In this document: piece after piece, positions 3,700 through 25,447 of the stretch
Position numbering within the stretch: the first letter of the stretch is position 1
Layout: each line of letters begins with the position of its first letter
From: Candidatus Parcubacteria bacterium
Lineage (GTDB): Bacteria > Patescibacteriota > Minisyncoccia > Phycocordibacterales > Zambryskibacteraceae
Reading direction: 5' to 3'
Length of the DNA stretch: 64,000 nt
Assembly (NCBI GenBank): GCA_019661865.1
Contig: JAIFWJ010000001.1
Location: 43,290-107,289 of the forward strand
Made by a program: the position numbers and the translations under genes
The notes under the pieces: model-generated
The model's database searches: none
What the model was told of the DNA's origin: nothing
The model's input: only the letters and a program-made list of their open reading frames with translations

Positions 3700-5904
3700 T
3701 CAATTAACATTCTTCTTTGCTTTTCTGGCGAATCCTCTTGCTTTCTTAGGTTCTTTAAGTATTTCTAAAGCGTGCTCGAGGGTGATGGTGTACACGTCGT
3801 CAGTTTTAAGAGAGCGGAAATCTTTCTGGTGCACTATGTATGGACCGAAGCGTCCGATGTTCGCCGTTATAGTCTCCCCGGTATCTGGATGCTTACCCAA
3901 CACACGGGGTAGAGATAAGTACTTTAAAGCATCTTCTAACGTTACTTCAGAGAGATTTTTAGTCTTGGGGATAGAGGCCTTGCGGGCTTTATCCTTGGAC
4001 TTACTGCCCTTACCCTTAGCCTCCTCACCGAGCTGGACATATGGGCCGAAGCGTCCTGTCTTTATAAATATGTGTTTACCAGTCTCGGGGTCGGTGCCGA
4101 TGGGTTCATCTGCTTTTATCTCATGACCATCTAAGGTTAATGATCCAACACAGTCAGGGAAGCGCGAGCAAGAGAGAAAGCGGCCTCCACGTCCAAGCTT
4201 CACGATCATAGGACTTCCGCATACTGGACATTTGAACTCACTAGGTGCATCTCCAAGATTGGTGATCTTCTCAATGTTTGCCTTATCCTTCACATCACGC
4301 GAGAACGGTCCGTAGAAGTCCTTAAGAGTTTTCTCGTATGTGCGGAGACCCTGCGCTACTTCGTCGAGTTCATCTTCCATCTCTGCGGTGAAGGAGTCGC
4401 TTATATAGTTCTGAAAATTATTTTCAAGAAATGTTGAGACCACATCACCCACATCGGTTGGCTTCAGAGCTTTGTTATCTTTCTCTACGTAACCACGATC
4501 TACAATGGTCTTAATAATAGATGCATATGTAGAAGGGCGACCGATGCCGCGCTTCTCGAGCTCTTTTATGAGACCTGCTTCTGAGTAGCGTGCTGGAGGT
4601 TGTGTCTCGAGTTCCTGTGAGTGAATATCTACAAGATTAAGCTTCTCACCAACTGTAAGCTCGGGTAATATTACTTCCTCTCCTTGAGCGGCAGGGTCTG
4701 CCTTGGTCCATCCATCGAAGAGTATGCGAGAACCATTAAGCCAGAAGTCTGGGATTTTGCTATCATTTTCTTTTGCCTCAACATTTGCCACAACTTTTGT
4801 GCGCATGATGAGAGCATCTTTCATCTGCGTAGCCAGAGTTCTCTGCCAGATCAGTTTATAAAGTCGTTTTTGCTCGTCGGTGTGACCGGCATTCTCAGCA
4901 CTCATGTGAGTAGGACGAATGGCCTCGTGTGCTTCTTGTGCATTCTTAGATTTCTTGGCGAAGACATGAGACTCGAAGTAGTTTGCACCGAACTTTTTCT
5001 CCACTATAGACCTTATGTCATTCTTGGCTTGGACTCCGAGGTTTGTCGAGTCGGTGCGCATGTATGTGATAAGTCCCGCTTCATACAGTCTCTGGGCCAC
5101 CATCATAGTGCGAGAAGGAGCGAAGCCAAGTCTCGATGATGCTGCTTGCTGAAGAGTAGAAGTGATGAAGGGTGGACGAGGAGCACGCTTTACCTGCGCT
5201 TCCTTTATATCAGTGACTTTCCAACTTCCTTTCTTACCTTCATCTAAGATTCTATCTACCTCACTTTTATCCCTAGGCTCGACCGAAGCCTCGAAGTGTA
5301 AGTGATTGTCCTTGGTGTCATGAAGCTCTGCGAAGATCTTCCAGAAGGTCTCTGGTTTGAATCCTCTGATCTCGCGCTCGCGCTCCATTATTATGCGTAG
5401 AGCAGGTGACTGCACACGGCCTGCCGAGAGTCCATAACGAACTTTCTTCCATATGAGCCCTGATAAGTCATAACCCACTAGTCGGTCAAGGACGCGACGT
5501 GCTTCTTGCGCTTCCTTTAAGTCGTTATCAATATCGCGGGGATGCTCTATAGCTTCCTCTACCGCCTCCTTAGTGATCTCATGGAAGACAATGCGCTTCG
5601 GATGTTTGAGTCCTACCGCTTCCTTTATATGCCAGGCTATGGCCTCGCCTTCACGGTCGGGGTCTGTGGCGAGTAAGACTTCACTAGCCTTCTTAGCCAA
5701 TGTTTTAATTTCTGAGATGATATGTTCCTTACCCTTCACTACTTCGTAATGGGGGATGAATCCTCCTGGCACGTCGATAGCTGCCTTCTGAGACTTGGGC
5801 AGGTCGCGCACGTGTCCGACAGATGCAACAACTTTGAAATCTTTTCCAAGATACTTTTCAATAGTCTTTGCCTTGCTTGGTGACTCTACAATAACTAACC
5901 GCAT
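3700..5904 (-). CDS. topA: DNA topoisomerase I
   Basis: TOPRIM N-terminus (MRLVIVESPSKAKTIEKYLG), the catalytic Tyr region and C-terminal Zn-ribbon repeats (CPVCGSPM...C..C); 734 aa. Confidence 0.95.
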   Translation of the reverse strand: MRLVIVESPSKAKTIEKYLGKDFKVVASVGHVRDLPKSQKAAIDVPGGFIPHYEVVKGKEHIISEIKTLAKKASEVLLATDPDREGEAIAWHIKEAVGLKHPKRIVFHEITKEAVEEAIEHPRDIDNDLKEAQEARRVLDRLVGYDLSGLIWKKVRYGLSAGRVQSPALRIIMEREREIRGFKPETFWKIFAELHDTKDNHLHFEASVEPRDKSEVDRILDEGKKGSWKVTDIKEAQVKRAPRPPFITSTLQQAASSRLGFAPSRTMMVAQRLYEAGLITYMRTDSTNLGVQAKNDIRSIVEKKFGANYFESHVFAKKSKNAQEAHEAIRPTHMSAENAGHTDEQKRLYKLIWQRTLATQMKDALIMRTKVVANVEAKENDSKIPDFWLNGSRILFDGWTKADPAAQGEEVILPELTVGEKLNLVDIHSQELETQPPARYSEAGLIKELEKRGIGRPSTYASIIKTIVDRGYVEKDNKALKPTDVGDVVSTFLENNFQNYISDSFTAEMEDELDEVAQGLRTYEKTLKDFYGPFSRDVKDKANIEKITNLGDAPSEFKCPVCGSPMIVKLGRGGRFLSCSRFPDCVGSLTLDGHEIKADEPIGTDPETGKHIFIKTGRFGPYVQLGEEAKGKGSKSKDKARKASIPKTKNLSEVTLEDALKYLSLPRVLGKHPDTGETITANIGRFGPYIVHQKDFRSLKTDDVYTITLEHALEILKEPKKARGFARKAKKNVN

Positions 5905-10405: not shown

Positions 10406-10544
10406 AATAATTTTTTAGTAAATTTTCCATAATACGGAGTCGAAAGAATAGGTTGACAGTTGCGTCTTTTATGATAGAAAGGGGCGAGATCCCCTTAAGT
10501 TCTTATACAGTGTTCTAGAGCGCGAGAGCGCAGGAGCGTGCAGA

Positions 10545-12245
10545 ATGCGGAAGTTGACCCTATTCCTAACTGCCTTAGGTCTCATAGTGAGCTGTAAAAA
10601 CAGCATCACTATTGATGACAAGGCGGTTGCGGGAGGAGGTGGAGGTGGGGGCGGAGGAACAGGACCGTGTTCTCTGAACTCCACAGTCACAGTCTCTCCA
10701 AAGTCGAACACACTCGTTGTGGGTTCGACCATGCAGGGCACGGCTACGTGGAACTGTGATGGAAAGGTCGAGTGGTACTCAACAGACGGATCGCGAGTAG
10801 ATGTGATTCATTTCGACACAACTTATGTGAACTCTCAGTTCCCATGGGGTGTCGGAACATTCAAGGCCGGCTTTATCAAGGCCTTGGCACCAGGACAAGC
10901 AGATGTCTGTGCGAAGCTGGTACTCTTCCCGAGTGTCCACGACTGCATGCACATCACAGTTACTGGCACTTCTACGACAGTCACAGTCTCAAGTGTGAAT
11001 GTTACTCCGCAAGGAGCGACAATCTCACTCTCGCTATCAAGCGGGACATGCTCGGCGACTCAGCTGTTCTCTGGACAAGTTCTAGGTTCGGACGGTCTTC
11101 CGTACTCGAACCAGGGCTTAACCTGGACCACTTCCGGAGGAGGGATCTCCTCCTCCGGTTTGTTTACAGCTTCGGCTCCAGGTACTTACACAGTTACGGG
11201 AGCATCCGTCGCAGATCCAAATGTGAAGGGCACTGCACAGATCACTGTGTCGGGCTCGTGTCAGCAGACCGGTCCAACGATTAACCCTGTTGGTCCTATC
11301 ACACTTGGTTCCGGTACAGGATGTACGAACAACACTGGAAGTGCATCGATCACGAACGGTGTAGCAGTAACGTGGACGAATTCCAATCCGTCCGTCGTCA
11401 CCGTCACCAGTTCGACTTCGACCACGGTGAACTTCGTATCCGTCTCTGGCACGTCTGGCTCTACCACTATCACAGGTACGGCAGCAAATGGATTGTCAGT
11501 GTCACTCCTGGTGAATGTCTCGAACGCGTCTTGTAACACTGGCGTCATAGCCTTTGGCACTCCGCGTCCAGCAGACACGACCATCATGGCGAACACTCGT
11601 TACCACTTGTATGTACCCTACACGGTGCCTGCAGGTGTGCGTAATGATGTGTTAGTGCGGACAAGCAACTGTCTGGCATATGTCGGTGCTCCGGTTATCA
11701 CCTCGACTGGTACGAACACGTATCAGATTGATCTGACTGTCCAGGGTATCGCCACGTGCCAAGGTGGAGTCATTATTCTCAAGTCTGCAGCAGATACCAC
11801 CATTTCTGTCACAGCGCATGCGAATGTGGTCTCCGCACCAGGACCGACGATCGTCTGTTCTCCGGCATCTGCAAGTGGAGTAGTAGGGACGGGTGGCAGA
11901 GTAATCTGCACCATCTCAGGCTCCACTGACACACGAGTATGGTACTACTCGACGGATCCCTCGCGTGTATCGGTGGTTCAGAAGGATACGACCTTCGCCG
12001 CCGCTACGAACCCGTGGACTGCGGGCTCCCACTTCGGTGGAGAGTATCGCTACATCTGGACAGGTAGTGCAGATGAGTGTGGGTACTCGCCGTCGAACCC
12101 TTCAATCATCGCATGCATTACGCATACGGTGACGGCGGCTTCCGGTAATCTCATAGCCTCGAGCACATTCGAGATTAGAGATCATCCGGTAACGGTTGAA
12201 CTCAACCGCTTGTACACGGCCGTGAGATCTAGGTCTCTGAAATAG
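10545..12245 (+). CDS. Surface lipoprotein with a Gly9 linker and repeated bacterial Ig-like (Big_2-type) domains
   Basis: Signal peptide with lipobox (LIVSC), a GGGGGGGGG tract, then Ser/Thr-rich beta-type repeats (…TVTVSP…, …VTVTGTS…). Confidence 0.65.
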   Translation: MRKLTLFLTALGLIVSCKNSITIDDKAVAGGGGGGGGGTGPCSLNSTVTVSPKSNTLVVGSTMQGTATWNCDGKVEWYSTDGSRVDVIHFDTTYVNSQFPWGVGTFKAGFIKALAPGQADVCAKLVLFPSVHDCMHITVTGTSTTVTVSSVNVTPQGATISLSLSSGTCSATQLFSGQVLGSDGLPYSNQGLTWTTSGGGISSSGLFTASAPGTYTVTGASVADPNVKGTAQITVSGSCQQTGPTINPVGPITLGSGTGCTNNTGSASITNGVAVTWTNSNPSVVTVTSSTSTTVNFVSVSGTSGSTTITGTAANGLSVSLLVNVSNASCNTGVIAFGTPRPADTTIMANTRYHLYVPYTVPAGVRNDVLVRTSNCLAYVGAPVITSTGTNTYQIDLTVQGIATCQGGVIILKSAADTTISVTAHANVVSAPGPTIVCSPASASGVVGTGGRVICTISGSTDTRVWYYSTDPSRVSVVQKDTTFAAATNPWTAGSHFGGEYRYIWTGSADECGYSPSNPSIIACITHTVTAASGNLIASSTFEIRDHPVTVELNRLYTAVRSRSLK

Positions 12246-18071: not shown

Positions 18072-18692
18072 ATGACCTACGACCAGACTCCAAAAGAGGA
18101 AGAGATTGAAGCCACTGTCGCCGCTCTCAAGGAGCGCGGCTTCATGCCAGAAGTGCTTGAAAGCAGAGACAGTGCATTAAATAGAATTAAAGAATTAATT
18201 CCTAAGAGCGCATCTGTAATGAACGGAGCATCAGTAACACTACAAGAAATAGGATTTATAGATTACTTAAAGAGTGGAGAGCATGGATGGAAGAATTTAC
18301 ATGAAAACATATTGTCCGAGACAGACTCAGAGAAACAAGCCGAGCTACGCAAGCACTCGGTAGTTTCTGACTTTTACCTCGGAAGTGTCCATGCCCTCTC
18401 GAGGAGTGGGGAAATGGTCATAGCGTCGAATACTGGCAGTCAGCTTCCACACCTGGCCTTCACCTCGCAGAATTTGATACTAGTGGTTGGTTTCCAGAAG
18501 ATAGCTAGAGACTTGCCTAGTGCTCTGGAGCGCTTAGAGAAGTACGTGCTGCCGCTTGAGGACAAGAGACTACTCGCAAGTCCTTATAAGTCTCATACCA
18601 TGCATTCAAAAACTCTTATCCTACACCGAGAGAATCCGATGATGGGACGCAAGGTCCACGTTCTAATAATTAAAGAGAAACTAGGATTTTAA
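18072..18692 (+). CDS. LUD-domain (LutC/YkgG-like) protein
   Basis: LUD/DUF162-type sequence (…VVGFQKIARDLPSALERL…). Confidence 0.6.
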   Translation: MTYDQTPKEEEIEATVAALKERGFMPEVLESRDSALNRIKELIPKSASVMNGASVTLQEIGFIDYLKSGEHGWKNLHENILSETDSEKQAELRKHSVVSDFYLGSVHALSRSGEMVIASNTGSQLPHLAFTSQNLILVVGFQKIARDLPSALERLEKYVLPLEDKRLLASPYKSHTMHSKTLILHRENPMMGRKVHVLIIKEKLGF

Positions 18693-18757
18693 AGTAGAGT
18701 CAAGTAACGTGCGCCAGTTTTTAACGTCTCAGCATATATAAGCTAATAGTTAAAAAT

Positions 18758-19282
18758 ATGGCAACAACAATAGTAGGCGTTTTCGACAACCGAGTATCTG
18801 CCGACAGCGCGATAAATGAACTTCGTTCTATAGGGATTCCTGATGCAGAAATTTCTTACATGTACGCTGCACCCGAGGGAGATATAAAAGCTACTCACTC
18901 CACCGGTGAGCGTATGGGTACTCGCGCTGCAAGCGGTGCAGGTACGGGAGCAATCTTGGGTGCCATCGCTGGCTTCGTCGTGGCGAACGGCATCTTACCA
19001 GGACTCGGCACACTCTTCGTGGCCGGACCACTCGCTGCAGCACTTGGACTGACCGGAGTGGCGGCTACCACAGCGGCTGGAGCTCTGACCGGAGCAGCAG
19101 CTGGAGGAATCATTGGAGCATTAAGTGGTCTGGGAGTAAGTGAGTCAGATGCGCGCATGTATGAAGAGCGAGTTAGACGTGGAGGCATACTCTTAGTGGT
19201 GAACTCTGTGGCTGCTAACGCCGCCCGCGAGATTATGAAGAAGTTCGGAGCAGAAGAAATCAGAGAATACAGCGCTGCCTAA
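18758..19282 (+). CDS. General stress protein, YflT-domain with a Gly/Ala-rich membrane-like segment
   Basis: N-terminal VGVFDNRVSADSAINELRSIGIPDAEI (YflT-like) and C-terminal ...MYEERVRRGGILLVV. Confidence 0.6.
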   Translation: MATTIVGVFDNRVSADSAINELRSIGIPDAEISYMYAAPEGDIKATHSTGERMGTRAASGAGTGAILGAIAGFVVANGILPGLGTLFVAGPLAAALGLTGVAATTAAGALTGAAAGGIIGALSGLGVSESDARMYEERVRRGGILLVVNSVAANAAREIMKKFGAEEIREYSAA

Positions 19283-19390
19283 CGAAATCTTAAGAAATAT
19301 AGTGCTCTTTAAGTCTAGTAAGAGTCGAAGTGAGGCAGACGTCTCAGCATAAGTGGGGGCACCCACACATTATTCATTAATTACACTAAC

Positions 19391-19561
19391 ATGGCTCAAG
19401 ACAACACAGGTGGTGGAAGGGGATTTGCTTCTATGAGTGAGGAAGAGCGCCGTGAGGCGGCTAGGAAGGGTGGCAAGGCTTCACACGAGAATCGTAGTGG
19501 GAATCGTGATGGTGGCGACAACTCTGACAATAGTGGCAACCAAGGTGGTGAAAACAGGTAA
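19391..19561 (+). CDS. KGG-repeat stress-induced protein (YciG/con-10 family), 56 aa; absent from the supplied ORF track
   Basis: MAQDNTGGGRGFASMSEEERREAARKGGKASHENRSGNRDGGDNSDNSGNQGGENR: GFASM...KGGKASH is the KGG motif; followed by a terminator. Confidence 0.7.
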   Translation: MAQDNTGGGRGFASMSEEERREAARKGGKASHENRSGNRDGGDNSDNSGNQGGENR

Positions 19562-19604
19562 GTTGAAACTCGTGTGGGGGCAAACAATAAAGAGGCTCTC
19601 TTTT

Positions 19605-19637
19605 CCTGGAGACTATAAAATGGTTCTCCAGGTTTTG
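19605..19637 (+). terminator. Intrinsic terminator
   Basis: cctggaga...tctccagg followed by TTTT. Confidence 0.5.
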
Positions 19638-19646
19638 TGCGTATGC

Positions 19647-19674
19647 TTGAATGTTTAAATAGGCTATCTATAAT
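19647..19674 (+). promoter_or_regulatory. sigma70-like promoter (TTGAAT-16-TATAAT)
   Basis: ttgaat 19647-52 and tataat 19669-74. Confidence 0.4.
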
Positions 19675-19694
19675 AGGGGATACTAAATTAAAGT

Positions 19695-20297
19695 ATGCCC
19701 AAAGTACCTTCAAAAGTGTTAGAGAGAGTAGTAGTCGATGAGTCGATTGCGGCGCCAGTAGTGGAGCCGATTTTTATTGCCAAGCCGGGTAGAACCCTCG
19801 AATGGTTCGGTGGTGTGAGCTATGAAAACTTGGAAAGTAAGCTCTCGAGTATAAAGAAGTTGTTAATAGATGATTCGCTTGAGGAGATTCATCTTTTCGT
19901 AAACTCTTTCGGTGGTACTACCGGAATAGGGATGAGTTTTTATGATGCTATGCACTCTATGTATAAACCGAACTTGGTGACCATCGGCTCTGGGGATGTG
20001 GATTCATCGGGGATTATTGTTTTTCTATCTGGGAAAAAGAGGTTTATGACCAGGAATACTACCATGCTCTTCCATCTTGCTGGCAGAACCTTCGGTTATG
20101 ATAGACGCTTCACAACTATAGATATGGAAAACATGCTTCGTGAGGACAGACTGAAGGATTTTCAATATGCATCTGTTGTTTCTGAGGCTACTGGGGGAAA
20201 GCTTTCTACAGAGCGTGTTCTCGACATGATGATGAAGAACACCATCCTAACTCCAGAAGAAGCAGTCCAAATGGGCATCGCCCACAAGGTGCTATAA
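19695..20297 (+). CDS. ClpP-family (S14) serine peptidase-like protein
   Basis: Aligns by eye to ClpP: VNSFGG~INSPGG, ...KRFMTRNTTMLFHLA~KRFCLPNSRVMIHQP; no clpX/clpA partner nearby. Confidence 0.7.
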   Translation: MPKVPSKVLERVVVDESIAAPVVEPIFIAKPGRTLEWFGGVSYENLESKLSSIKKLLIDDSLEEIHLFVNSFGGTTGIGMSFYDAMHSMYKPNLVTIGSGDVDSSGIIVFLSGKKRFMTRNTTMLFHLAGRTFGYDRRFTTIDMENMLREDRLKDFQYASVVSEATGGKLSTERVLDMMMKNTILTPEEAVQMGIAHKVL

Positions 20298-20304
20298 TTC
20301 GGAA

Positions 20305-21411
20305 ATGAAGAAGTTTGTCCTCATTTTATTTTTTCTAGCACCAGCTTTCTCTCATGCCACAGTCATTACCAAGCCTTTTGAAGTTTCTGGCTGGATTCCT
20401 TACTGGAGATCGGCTACTGGGACCCAAGAGGCATTAGGACATCTGGACGCATTCACCGAGATTGATCCGTTCGTATATACCGTGAAGGCTGATGGGACAC
20501 TTTATGATGCGGGTGGCATGGATACTGACCCTTGGACAAGTTTCGTCAGGACAGCCCAGTCGAAAAATGTCAGGGTGATCCCCACGATCATGTCCGGAAG
20601 TGGAGAGCATATGGATGCCATACTTACGAGTAAGACTCTTAGAGATGCTCATATCCAAGCTATAGTACAAATGGTTTACTCCCACAACTTCGACGGAGTA
20701 GACATCGATTATGAAGCTAGAAGTCCCTCTACCTCTCCGTACTATTCCATATTTCTCAGAGATTTATATAAAGCTATAGGCAACAAGTGGGTGATGTGCA
20801 CCATAGAAGCTCGCACACCTAAGGACTCGTTAGCAAGAGACCCAAGTATTCCTAACTCTAATGATGATTATAAGGAGCTTAACAAGTACTGCGACAGAGT
20901 GCGTATCATGACCTACGACCAGAGAGTGGTGGACAAGAAGCTCGCGGCAGAGACTTCTGATCCGTACTCTCCTGTGGCTGACCCCAAATGGGTTGAGAAG
21001 GTTATGAAGCTTGCTCTCCAGTATTTTCCCAAGAAGAAGCTTATGCTTGGTATAGCTACTTATGGATACGAGTACGAAGTTACTCCACTGGTGGAAGGTT
21101 ACAAGTACAAACTTCTCTGGGCATTTAATCCACGCTACGCTCTCGACTTCGCCAACACTTCTGGAGTACCAGTTTATAGGAATGCTGCTGGAGAACTCTC
21201 GCTAATATATAGACCAGGAACAGATGGTATACCACCAGTTGCAAACATCTTAGTCGCCCTTCACAGTCCAAGCTTCAGACTGATGTGGTGGTCTGATGCC
21301 CAAGCTATACAAGACAAGGTGGCGCTAGCCAAGAAGCTTGGCATAAGAGGAGTATCTATATTTAAGATAGATGGGGGAGCAGACCCCGGGATGTGGAATG
21401 TATTAGAATAA
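20305..21411 (+). CDS. Glycoside hydrolase family 18 (chitinase-like), secreted
   Basis: Signal peptide; FDGVDIDYE catalytic DxDxE motif. Confidence 0.8.
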   Translation: MKKFVLILFFLAPAFSHATVITKPFEVSGWIPYWRSATGTQEALGHLDAFTEIDPFVYTVKADGTLYDAGGMDTDPWTSFVRTAQSKNVRVIPTIMSGSGEHMDAILTSKTLRDAHIQAIVQMVYSHNFDGVDIDYEARSPSTSPYYSIFLRDLYKAIGNKWVMCTIEARTPKDSLARDPSIPNSNDDYKELNKYCDRVRIMTYDQRVVDKKLAAETSDPYSPVADPKWVEKVMKLALQYFPKKKLMLGIATYGYEYEVTPLVEGYKYKLLWAFNPRYALDFANTSGVPVYRNAAGELSLIYRPGTDGIPPVANILVALHSPSFRLMWWSDAQAIQDKVALAKKLGIRGVSIFKIDGGADPGMWNVLE

Positions 21412-22694: not shown

Positions 22695-22719
22695 AGCCCC
22701 GCACTTGCGGGGTTTTTCG
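22695..22719 (+). terminator. Intrinsic terminator
   Basis: ccccgca-ct-tgcgggg followed by TTTTT. Confidence 0.6.
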
Positions 22720-22752
22720 TAAGAAATATAAAAGGCGGGCGTTCTTAGATAT

Positions 22753-22992
22753 ATGGGTAAGGAAGTGAAAGCAGTAATTGGGGCTACGATGTTTCTAATT
22801 TCAGTAGTGTTCATGATGCTTGTCACACAGCTGTATCGTAATACTCAAGTGGTTAAAGAAGAAAGTGGAGACATTTACTGCACAGCTGAGGTTAGAGTGT
22901 GTCCGAATGGTTCGCGTGTAAGTCGAGTGCCACCTATGTGTGACTTCAAGATGTGCCCCAATGCTAGCCCATCTTCATTAAGTAGTATTTAA
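22753..22992 (+). CDS. Small secreted Cys-rich protein
   Basis: 79 aa, TM/signal plus 6 Cys. Confidence 0.3.
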   Translation: MGKEVKAVIGATMFLISVVFMMLVTQLYRNTQVVKEESGDIYCTAEVRVCPNGSRVSRVPPMCDFKMCPNASPSSLSSI

Positions 22993-23762: not shown

Positions 23763-23892
23763 ATAAAAACGAAATTTAATTTCTAATTAAAGTGATGTAA
23801 GAAGTTTGGACAACTAGCGTCTTGGGATTTATGACCTCCTCACTACATTCTACTTGGGGGTCGAAGTGTTAATTAAAAACTAAACTAATCTT

Positions 23893-24516
23893 ATGAAATA
23901 CACGATTCCTCTAGTGTCATTAGGATTAGGAATTCTTCTTCTCATTTTCTTTGCTCCCAATGCTCAGAGCACAGTAAATGCAGAAGACATGAAGGTGAAC
24001 ATGGTAAGTGTCACCAGAGCTGACATAGAAGGTAGTGACGATGAGACACCGGTAGTCCTCGTCAGCGCCAAGAATGTTGCCACACTCGATGATCTCCACG
24101 CATATGCTCTAACTGCGCTTAAAGCAGACCAGAAATTGAACTCCATGGTCTTTTACGATGGAGAAGTCAGTGTGACCTACCCAGCACACGGAAGAGCTCT
24201 TGGACTGGTACCGGTGGATATCCAAGTGGAAGCTACTGTAGATTCCCAAGGCAATATAAGCATTAAGTATCCATGGTATCGCTTCAGCATTTCTGCTGAA
24301 ACGGGTAATCTTGAGACCAACCTTAAATCCGAGATCCAGGATGCCACACTGGGTATTGGCTCAGAAGACGCTGGAGCACCTTCGCATATGGCAGCACTTG
24401 CATCAAGAGTATACTCAGTCCTCAGAAAGAATTTTGAATCAGTCGAATCATCTAATGGTTCAGATAGTAGTGTAAGTCCGAGCCCAGTTCAAAATGCTAC
24501 TCTTCAAGTCGAGTAA
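23893..24516 (+). CDS. Secreted hypothetical protein
   Basis: Signal peptide; no motif. Confidence 0.45.
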   Translation: MKYTIPLVSLGLGILLLIFFAPNAQSTVNAEDMKVNMVSVTRADIEGSDDETPVVLVSAKNVATLDDLHAYALTALKADQKLNSMVFYDGEVSVTYPAHGRALGLVPVDIQVEATVDSQGNISIKYPWYRFSISAETGNLETNLKSEIQDATLGIGSEDAGAPSHMAALASRVYSVLRKNFESVESSNGSDSSVSPSPVQNATLQVE

Positions 24517-24758
24517 GAATTCCGTAGAACTTTTCAAGATCCAGACTTTATGGTGTGTGGATAACATATGCTTGTGTTTTATAGATTGTTACCATAATAT
24601 AATTAACAAAGAGGGTCCGGGGTCTCCATAACACCCATGAATCCATTCACCACACTGGTGTTTGTCTGTCTCGTAGAGAAATAGTATTACGTATGGTGTG
24701 TATTATTGGTTGTATTATTAGTCCCCGTAAGGAACTTACCTCTAACACGTCTCACCCA

Positions 24759-25277
24759 ATGGAAACGCAACCTGTCGAAGCAAGATTCGCAGAGATTTAT
24801 AAAACTGAAGTGGATTCTGTATTCCGCTTCTGCCTTTTACGCACCTCTGATCACGAGTTGGCATTAGATCTAACTCAGGATACCTTTATGCGTTTCTGGA
24901 ATTCGCTATGTCAAGAGAAGATTGTGAAGAACTCACGAGCTTTTCTGTTCGCCATAGCTAGAAACCTCATCATAGACTGGTACAGAAGGAAGAAGGCTAT
25001 TTCCCTCGAATCGCTCCTCTTCGAAGGCGCGGAGGATAAAAATGACTTACTGGCCTCTGCCTCTAAGGTTGAAATAGATGCAGAAGCGAGTTATCTTTTA
25101 AAGAAGATCGCTGAGCTTGATCCTCTCTACAGAGAAGCGGTCTATCTCAGATGTGTCGAGGAGTTAAAGCCCCGGGAGATAGCTGAGGTACTCTCCGAGT
25201 CAGCCAATGTTATCTCAGTACGTATAAACCGCGGATTAAGCCAGCTCCGTAAGCTCTTACACTACGAAAATACATGA
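24759..25277 (+). CDS. ECF-subfamily RNA polymerase sigma-70 factor
   Basis: Region 2 (FRFCLL...DLTQDTFMRFW, ARNLIIDWYRRKK) and region 4 (REAVYLRCVEELKPREIAEVL...RINRGL). Confidence 0.85.
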   Translation: METQPVEARFAEIYKTEVDSVFRFCLLRTSDHELALDLTQDTFMRFWNSLCQEKIVKNSRAFLFAIARNLIIDWYRRKKAISLESLLFEGAEDKNDLLASASKVEIDAEASYLLKKIAELDPLYREAVYLRCVEELKPREIAEVLSESANVISVRINRGLSQLRKLLHYENT

Positions 25278-25447
25278 TAAACGATGATTGTCCCAGTGGT
25301 CTCGGATCCATCCGCAAGGTGCGTCTTCCCGAAGATCTAAAGGAGAAAATATACAATAGAATAATGGCCCAAGAAATTTCCGAAAGGAAGGCTTTTTCGT
25401 TTTGGAGGGTAAATTTAGAAAAACTGATTTCTATTTTGAAAGACTAA
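25274..25447 (+). CDS. Small ORF translationally coupled (ATGA overlap) to the ECF sigma gene; anti-sigma candidate
   Basis: ATG overlaps the sigma TGA stop; 57 aa (MINDDCPSGLGSIRKV...); no TM or Zn motif. Confidence 0.3.
   Translation: MINDDCPSGLGSIRKVRLPEDLKEKIYNRIMAQEISERKAFSFWRVNLEKLISILKD

Follow-up and report, generated by a model that had tools for sequence, protein, structure and literature searches.

An exact 13-mer before two stress-protein genes of a Candidatus Parcubacteria bacterium is probably the downstream half of two promoters read by an ECF sigma factor

What does it mean when the same 13 nucleotides (nt) stand, letter for letter, before two adjacent stress-protein genes? 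This question is raised by a stretch of 64,000 nt (64 kb, hereafter called the window) from a Candidatus Parcubacteria bacterium (GenBank assembly GCA_019661865.1, contig JAIFWJ010000001.1, positions 43,290 to 107,289), in which the 13-mer ACGTCTCAGCATA precedes a gene for a YflT-domain protein and a gene for a KGG-repeat peptide. Our analysis leads us to suggest that both copies are most probably the downstream half, running from the -10 box to the predicted transcription start, of promoters that depend on a sigma factor of the extracytoplasmic function (ECF) type, the gene of which lies about 5.4 kb from them in the same window. The elements involved in and around the two promoters are:

18704-18709, + strand: -35-like box GTAACG of the predicted YflT promoter, 15 nt before CGTCT
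18724-18736, + strand: 13-mer copy 1 (exact match), composed of A, the -10 box CGTCT (18725-18729), CAGCAT, and the A at 18736 that is the predicted start
18758-19282, + strand: gene for a YflT-domain protein of 174 amino acids (aa) with a glycine/alanine-rich membrane segment (Pfam YflT, 8.8e-7)
19318-19323, + strand: -35 box GTAAGA of the predicted KGG promoter, 16 nt before CGTCT
19339-19351, + strand: 13-mer copy 2 (exact match), composed of A, the -10 box CGTCT (19340-19344), CAGCAT, and the A at 19351 that is the predicted start
19391-19561, + strand: gene for a KGG-repeat stress peptide of 56 aa, apparently monocistronic (Pfam KGG, 1.1e-7)

The 13-mer occurs exactly twice in the window, both times on the + strand, with 21 nt separating copy 1 from the ATG at 18758 and 39 nt separating copy 2 from the ATG at 19391; no further copy was found in the window when one to two mismatches were allowed. 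The position of both copies before the two genes, as given in a preliminary description made from the sequence alone, was borne out by exact search. The argument offered there, that a specific 13-mer would recur by chance in 64 kb only with a probability on the order of 10^-3, is invalid, as 54 pairs of direct repeats of 13 nt or longer are present in the window, compared to 32 +/- 6 in dinucleotide-preserving shuffles (for pairs less than 1 kb apart, 4 observed and 0.9 expected). Since such repeats are commonplace in 64 kb, the exact repeat alone is no evidence of function, and the idea that the 13-mer is significant by itself was rejected on these counts. The 9-mer CGTCTCAGC, searched in the window with one mismatch, showed no enrichment either (17 occurrences as compared to 12.9 expected), and when the two intergenic regions were aligned locally the 13-mer was the sole match, the spacers being unrelated.

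The non-random part of the repeat consists of CGTCT and an upstream GTAAnn, and it is recognised only through comparison with other genomes. CGTCT lies inside both copies of the 13-mer and is preceded, 15-16 nt upstream, by a GTAAnn box resembling a -35 element, which had gone unnoticed in the preliminary description. In the forward orientation this two-part motif stands upstream of the KGG gene in all eight genomes of the set (the window, L006, L008, L009, L010, L011, L012 and L119), as compared to a mean of 0.07 in shuffles, and upstream of YflT genes at 12 of 35 unique loci, for which 1000 shuffles gave a mean of 0.16 and a maximum of 3; the reverse strand gave none in either set. The closest relatives all bear the motif, in the form GTAATG-N15-CGTCT (L117, L118, L119) or GTAATA-N15-CGTCT (L013, L103), and the -35 boxes of orthologous YflT promoters read GTAATG, GTAATA or GTAACC at equal spacing. 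The YflT protein of the window scores 29.8 bits against a Pfam gathering cutoff of 26.2 and is 100% identical to the NCBI entry KW790_00395 from a Candidatus Parcubacteria metagenome-assembled genome (MAG); Patescibacteria account for most of its 1144 homologues at E<=1e-8.

Which sigma factor could read such a motif? The only sigma-like open reading frame (ORF) in the 64-kb window lies downstream of the two stress genes, and it is itself preceded by the motif:

24727-24752, + strand: GTAAGG-N15-CGTCT, predicted autoregulatory promoter of the sigma gene, 6 nt from the ATG
24759-25277, + strand: ECF sigma factor gene, 172 aa (Sigma70_r2, 2e-11; Sigma70_r4_2, 2.8e-9)

The ORF contains the sigma2 and sigma4 domains only and has no Pfam match to regions 1 or 3, which places it among the ECF (group 4) sigma factors, and it scores 71.8 bits with the sigma70-ECF model TIGR02937 (cutoff 42.9). 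It stays below the cutoff of every named NCBIfam ECF subfamily or equivalog (SigM, SigW, SigV, SigX-like, BldN and others), the best of these being SigM_subfam with 88 bits against a cutoff of 147.95, and the nearest solved structure is that of SigW (5wuq, 3e-12). NCBI lists a Candidatus Parcubacteria protein of equal length that matches it with 100% identity. Among its 404 homologues at E<=1e-10 the best 120 are 59-85% identical to it; identity is about 60-70% across Paceibacterota (Parcubacteria) and 36-45% in distant matches, for example from Peregrinibacteria and Magasanikbacteria.

It is usual for ECF sigma factors to autoregulate, which offers the standard route to the promoter motif that they recognise (PMC7826278). 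We compared 80 sigma loci, scanning one genome per species, from Paceibacterota/Parcubacteria, Zambryskibacteria, Kaiserbacteria, Nomurabacteria, Magasanikbacteria, Peregrinibacteria/Peribacteria and others. At 56 of them GTAAnn-N15-CGTyn stands directly before the start codon of the sigma gene. Of these 56 promoters 55 have a spacer of exactly 15 nt, and the gap between CGTCN and the start codon is exactly 6 nt in 34 and 5 to 7 nt in 41 of the 56; the sigma gene of the window shows the same layout, GTAAGG-N15-CGTCT-cacCCA-ATG. This suggests that the sigma gene is autoregulated and gives rise to a leaderless mRNA, since so rigid a distance between the -10 box and the ATG would put the transcription start at or beside the A of the ATG.

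Motif and fixed geometry are conserved before sigma factor, KGG and YflT genes in many Patescibacteria. The earlier proposal of a promoter element shared by a stress regulon is upheld by this conservation, yet the functional unit is GTAAnn-N15/16-CGTCT and not the 13-mer as such, of which only about 5 to 8 bases are conserved elsewhere. Both 13-mer sites combine rigid two-box spacing with a -10 box that starts with CGT, as is seen in ECF promoters, whose -35 element typically includes AAC and whose -10 element includes CGT, the latter being CGTC for sigmaM, sigmaX and sigmaV of B. subtilis (PMC5758882). Within the window, the pattern GTAAS-N15-18-CGTC has 7 matches as compared to 2.3 expected. 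Four of the seven are intergenic, lie on the + strand before + strand genes and fall inside a 6-kb stretch that includes the ECF sigma gene, namely the YflT site, the KGG site and the sites at 23797 and 24727. When some 128,000 window positions were scored with a position weight matrix (PWM) trained only on the sigma promoters of other genomes, ranks 1 to 3 went to 23797 (18.0 bits), 24727 (17.7 bits) and the KGG site at 19318 (17.5 bits), and the top five sites were all intergenic and oriented toward a gene.

We propose that RNA polymerase carrying the ECF sigma factor (24759-25277) would recognise GTAACG at 18704 and GTAAGA at 19318 as -35 boxes, and CGTCT in the 13-mer, 15 or 16 nt downstream, as the -10 box. 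Transcription would start about 7 nt after CGTCT, at 18736 for YflT and at 19351 for KGG, in each case at the last A of the 13-mer; these positions are predicted with the CGTCN-N6-ATG arrangement of 34 of the 56 sigma promoters serving as a ruler. The 13-mer would then span about -12 to +1 and take in -10 box, discriminator and start site, and leaders of about 22 nt are predicted for YflT and of about 40 nt for KGG. From GTAAGG-N15-CGTCT-N6-ATG the sigma factor would drive its own gene, probably as a leaderless mRNA, and it would also drive the neighbouring gene for a secreted protein. Its activity would presumably be checked by the small anti-sigma-like protein encoded directly downstream, and under some inducing signal the YflT and KGG stress proteins would be induced together as one ECF regulon.

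Several observations weigh against this proposal. The motif is missing at 23 of the 35 YflT loci, and distant YflT loci have AT-rich sigma-70-like promoters in its place. The YflT site of the window reaches only 9.6 bits and rank 9 with the PWM, where shuffles give about 4 matches of at least 10 bits. This low score arises because its -35 box GTAACG has C at the fifth base, where the cross-genome logo has G at a frequency of 0.87, so that it is comparison, and not the score, that supports the YflT promoter. The KGG, sigma and 23797 sites share GTAAG, so that their -35 boxes contain AAG and not the canonical AAC of ECF promoters, which among these sites is found at the YflT site. The spacer of the KGG promoter measures 16 nt as compared to 15 nt in 55 of 56 sigma promoters, although three other KGG promoters of the set (L006, L008 and L012) have 16 nt as well. 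Binding of the sigma factor to the sites, dependence of the genes on it, the start sites, the leaderless mRNA and the inducing signal are all things that we infer. Finally, the model accounts for only CGTCT, or perhaps ACGTCTCA, within the 13-mer and leaves the remainder (CAGCATA) unexplained, and the 13 nt constitute the longest identical run anchored on CGTC among 210 pairs of motif sites within genomes, the next longest being 11.

But why would two promoters be identical beyond the box that they have to share? ACGTCTCA is common to the 13-mer and to the sigma promoter of the window itself; elsewhere only CGTCT is conserved, and CAGCAT is not conserved at the orthologous YflT or KGG promoters. 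Identical runs of at least 8 nt make up 8.6% of pairs within genomes as compared to 3.2% between genomes, a ratio of about 2.7, which hints at extended -10 preferences that are specific to a genome. The closest relative of the sigma factor (L120, 85% identity) is uninformative as to an extended -10 box, its -10 region consisting of Ns. Within 22 nt 3' of the -10 box at 71 non-leaderless sites the 5-mers ATAAG (10 occurrences, 2.7 expected), AGGGT (9, 1.2 expected) and GGTCG (7, 0.7 expected) are enriched, a feature noted in the window and at loci L001, L003, L006, L008, L012, L028, L064, L065 and L120, and after CGTCN position +8 is T in 55% and position +9 a purine in 83% of the sites. ATAAG follows shortly after CGTCT at both the YflT and the KGG site (window positions 18730-18748 and 19345-19356). 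These 5-mers may represent a second element or start-site context. The additional identity of the 13-mer could possibly reflect a second regulator, start-site context or short-tract copying.

The first of these alternatives holds that the 13-mer, or its 3' part CAGCATA(AG), is the operator of a separate regulator that covers the -10 box and start of both promoters and adds a second layer of control. The identity, which runs 8 nt past CGTCT and is the longest in the set of 210 pairs, speaks for such an operator, as does the enrichment of ATAAG, and the unrelated spacers make wholesale duplication an unlikely source of the identity. We nevertheless judge it unlikely. The 13-mer is neither palindromic nor internally repeated, unlike usual operators, CAGCAT is not retained at the orthologous promoters, and the distance of ATAAG from CGTCT varies from 1 to 11 nt. 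Moreover, the YflT/KGG pair was chosen for its identity, so that its extreme length is in part an ascertainment effect and yields no P-value.

Alternatively, a short promoter core may have been copied locally, by gene conversion or duplication, and thereby have added identity to a shared ECF -10 box. The two sites are only 615 bp apart, and the identity has sharp borders and is not retained in other genomes, which speaks for copying; a conversion tract of 13 nt between wholly dissimilar flanks would however be unusually short, and there are no flanking repeats or signatures of mobile elements, which makes local copying improbable in our view. A recent duplication of the whole promoter was rejected, spacers and flanks being without similarity. 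Neither a separate operator nor gene conversion would replace the ECF promoter, which would stay in place beneath either of them.

That the 13-mer is a chance repeat, functionless at both sites, is very unlikely. The abundance of repeat pairs in the window and the lack of additional degenerate copies fit coincidence, yet coincidence does not explain why CGTCT recurs at a fixed distance from GTAAnn, in the forward orientation only, before the KGG, YflT and sigma genes of so many genomes. Least probable is a sigmaB-type (group 3) or housekeeping sigma-70 promoter that contains the 13-mer and drives both genes. In its favour, YflT and KGG/GsiB-like proteins are members of the sigmaB or sigmaS regulons in Bacillus and E. 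coli; the preliminary description had pointed to sigmaB-type regulons of Firmicutes. Such a promoter is not supported: reading of the sequence at the YflT and KGG sites reveals no pair resembling GTTTAA-N12-15-GGGTAT, a scan for sigma-70 promoters detects hexamer pairs at neither of the two but picks one up before the next gene, at 19647-19674, the single sigma-like ORF of the window encodes an ECF sigma factor, and ECF-type boxes are conserved in the orthologous promoters.

With an ECF promoter as the preferred explanation for both sites, further genes of the window come into view as possible members of the regulon:

23797-23822, + strand: GTAAGA-N15-CGTCT, intergenic, predicted promoter of a secreted-protein gene
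23893-24516, + strand: gene for a secreted (signal-peptide) protein, behind the motif site 23797-23822
22719-22744, + strand: candidate site GTAAGA-N15-CGTTC, intergenic, 8 nt before ORF 22753-22992 (PWM 13.0 bits, rank 5)
10442-10467, + strand: candidate site GAAAGA-N15-CGTCT, intergenic, before ORF 10545-12245 (PWM 16.4 bits)

At 11 loci homologues of the secreted protein are encoded beside the sigma gene, and several of these genes follow the same motif. Other genes that recurrently bear the motif at sigma loci are a divergent gene for a secreted FN3-like protein (Pur_ac_phosph_N), which adjoins the sigma gene, and the DUF5667 gene, the latter in some loci. The sites at 22719 and 10442 may mark additional members of the regulon. 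The former lies directly 3' of a terminator-like hairpin, and it is uncorroborated, as the motif is mostly missing at orthologues of the downstream ORF. In the latter another base stands in place of the T of the -35 box, which is invariant elsewhere. Comparison with other genomes gives this site no support, and the ORF behind it (566 aa) has no Pfam match.

Directly behind the sigma gene lies a small ORF that may encode the partner of the sigma factor:

25274-25447, + strand: ORF of 57 aa that overlaps the sigma stop codon (hidden Markov model of the N-termini of downstream genes, E=1.6e-4)

Among the 1062 ORFs from all six frames of the window this ORF is the top match to the model, which was built from the N-termini of genes 3' of sigma at 60 loci. 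The products of most genes in this position at other loci are 200-480 aa long and contain both a hydrophobic stretch and the motif LPGDxLYPVK; in L044, the one full-length relative scanned, the Pfam domain DUF5667 was found. The Pfam scan of the 57-aa ORF gave no match to a known anti-sigma domain. In length the gene varies from 57 aa in the window and 57-66 aa in L001-L005 and L009 to 200-480 aa in most of L014-L079. To judge from these sequences, the long genes are likely to encode anti-sigma factors and the 57-aa ORF is probably the truncated N-terminal domain of such a factor; the short form would be a lineage-specific truncation, in the window genome and its nearest relatives, to a soluble protein.

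Two database records among the sigma loci carry unexpected titles. L055 (NYYK01000002.1, titled 'Methanobacteriota archaeon') is identical to the Peribacter contig L054 in the stretches compared, these being the 70 nt before the sigma gene and two genes bearing the motif, and L056 (OZ246400.1), a 931-kb chromosome titled 'uncultured Gammaproteobacteria', contains a sigma/DUF5667 module of the type found in the Candidate Phyla Radiation (CPR). Both records are probably mislabelled or misbinned.

The KGG gene is apparently a transcription unit of its own. Two nt after the predicted start the leader can form a hairpin, GUGGG-GGCA-CCCAC (19353-19366; -9.3 kcal/mol, z = -2.1), and 3' of the gene, near 19605-19636, there is a terminator-like hairpin followed by UUUU (U-run). 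The next gene, which encodes a ClpP-like protein and begins at 19695, has its own sigma-70-like promoter at 19647-19674. No Rfam match was found in 18500-19800 at E<=1. A segment from the KGG leader region, GTGGGGGCA, occurs again at 19575. The KGG gene, the gene for the ClpP-like protein (an inactive-looking member of the Clp protease family) and the YflT gene occur together, in varying order, in several genomes of Patescibacteria (window 18758-20297; L119 6984-8522; L118 7346-8528; L006, L008, L009, L010 and L012), which suggests that the three form a functional cluster of stress genes.

Two other repeats of the window were noted. CGCTTCCTTTATAT is present in three copies, one of them at 86% identity (5197-5210, 5509-5522 and 5617-5630), inside a long ORF on the - strand (3700-5904), where a segment of coding sequence is probably repeated. 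The 16-mer ATGACCTACGACCAGA is found at 18072-18087, at the start of a LUD-domain gene, and at 20908-20923, inside a GH18 gene; it looks like a coding coincidence, as MTYDQ is encoded in both places.

What could such a regulon mean for its hosts? Patescibacteria (CPR) are uncultivated organisms with tiny genomes and few regulators, and to our knowledge almost nothing is known about their promoters. We raise as a tentative idea, and one of which we are far from convinced, that a single, highly conserved and autoregulated ECF sigma factor with a leaderless mRNA is the general stress sigma factor of Patescibacteria, that it controls KGG, YflT and secreted fibronectin-like proteins, and that it is a counterpart of sigmaB and EcfG that has apparently not been described before. 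The extended identical segment from -12 to +1 may reflect a preference of this particular genome for an extended -10 box and discriminator, or a second regulator that couples both stress genes. Full-text searches of the literature on ECF sigma factors and sigma-factor promoters in Patescibacteria, CPR and Parcubacteria, and on DUF5667, retrieved no description of the system, and the main text of the ECF reclassification paper makes no mention of CPR taxa. The mechanism of an ECF promoter is itself textbook knowledge, and we consider the finding to be of moderate interest, mainly for the conservation of a regulon across a poorly understood radiation. As a searchable motif GTAAGA-N15-CGTCT allows one regulon to be predicted directly across hundreds of MAGs, and it suggests which small proteins (KGG, YflT and secreted FN3-like proteins) make up the stress response of Patescibacteria. 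The sigma promoter, in turn, offers a testable case of leaderless autoregulation.

The gene content of the predicted regulon recalls the sigmaB regulon of B. subtilis, which includes YflT and GsiB, and the sigmaS-dependent yciG of E. coli, a KGG gene, in that the same protein families would be co-regulated. It differs from the sigmaB regulon in promoter type and in the class of the sigma factor, as the sites lack a sigmaB consensus and the window has no gene for a group 3 sigma factor. A second parallel is the general stress response of Alphaproteobacteria, which consists of the sigma factor EcfG, NepR and PhyR and operates on promoters of the form GGAAC-N16-17-CGTT. In both cases an ECF sigma factor, and not sigmaB or sigmaS, appears to control small proteins of the general-stress type, the promoter geometry is nearly equal (xxAAx-N16-CGTy), and the anti-sigma-like partner, in the window at least, is small and apparently soluble. 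Different from the EcfG system however, the window contains neither an anti-anti-sigma factor resembling PhyR nor a second sigma-like ORF (its only PhyR_sigma-like Pfam match is the sigma factor itself, at 17.9 bits against a cutoff of 27), the relatives of the anti-sigma-like protein are DUF5667 membrane proteins and not NepR, and the -35 box reads GTAAG and not GGAAC.

The sigmaX, sigmaM, sigmaV and sigmaW promoters of B. subtilis combine a -35 box tGnAAC with a spacer of 16-17 nt and a -10 box CGTC or CGTA. The sites described here resemble B. subtilis ECF promoters in their two-part structure, in a -35 box with AA and a single further base at its end, in a -10 box that starts with CGTC and in rigid spacing (PMC5758882); the systems would also have in common an autoregulated sigma gene and an anti-sigma gene co-transcribed downstream of it, which in our case is putative. 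They differ in the -35 box, which at most sites is GTAAGA with AAG, in the apparently leaderless sigma mRNA (CGTCN-N6-ATG), in an anti-sigma-like gene that is of the DUF5667 type (as scanned in L044) and encodes 57 aa in the window, and in the host, a member of the Patescibacteria. In functional terms the predicted module follows the standard arrangement, in which an ECF sigma factor paired with an anti-sigma factor regulates its own gene and acts on AAx/CGTC promoters; its closest counterparts are sigmaX, sigmaM, sigmaV and sigmaW of B. subtilis.

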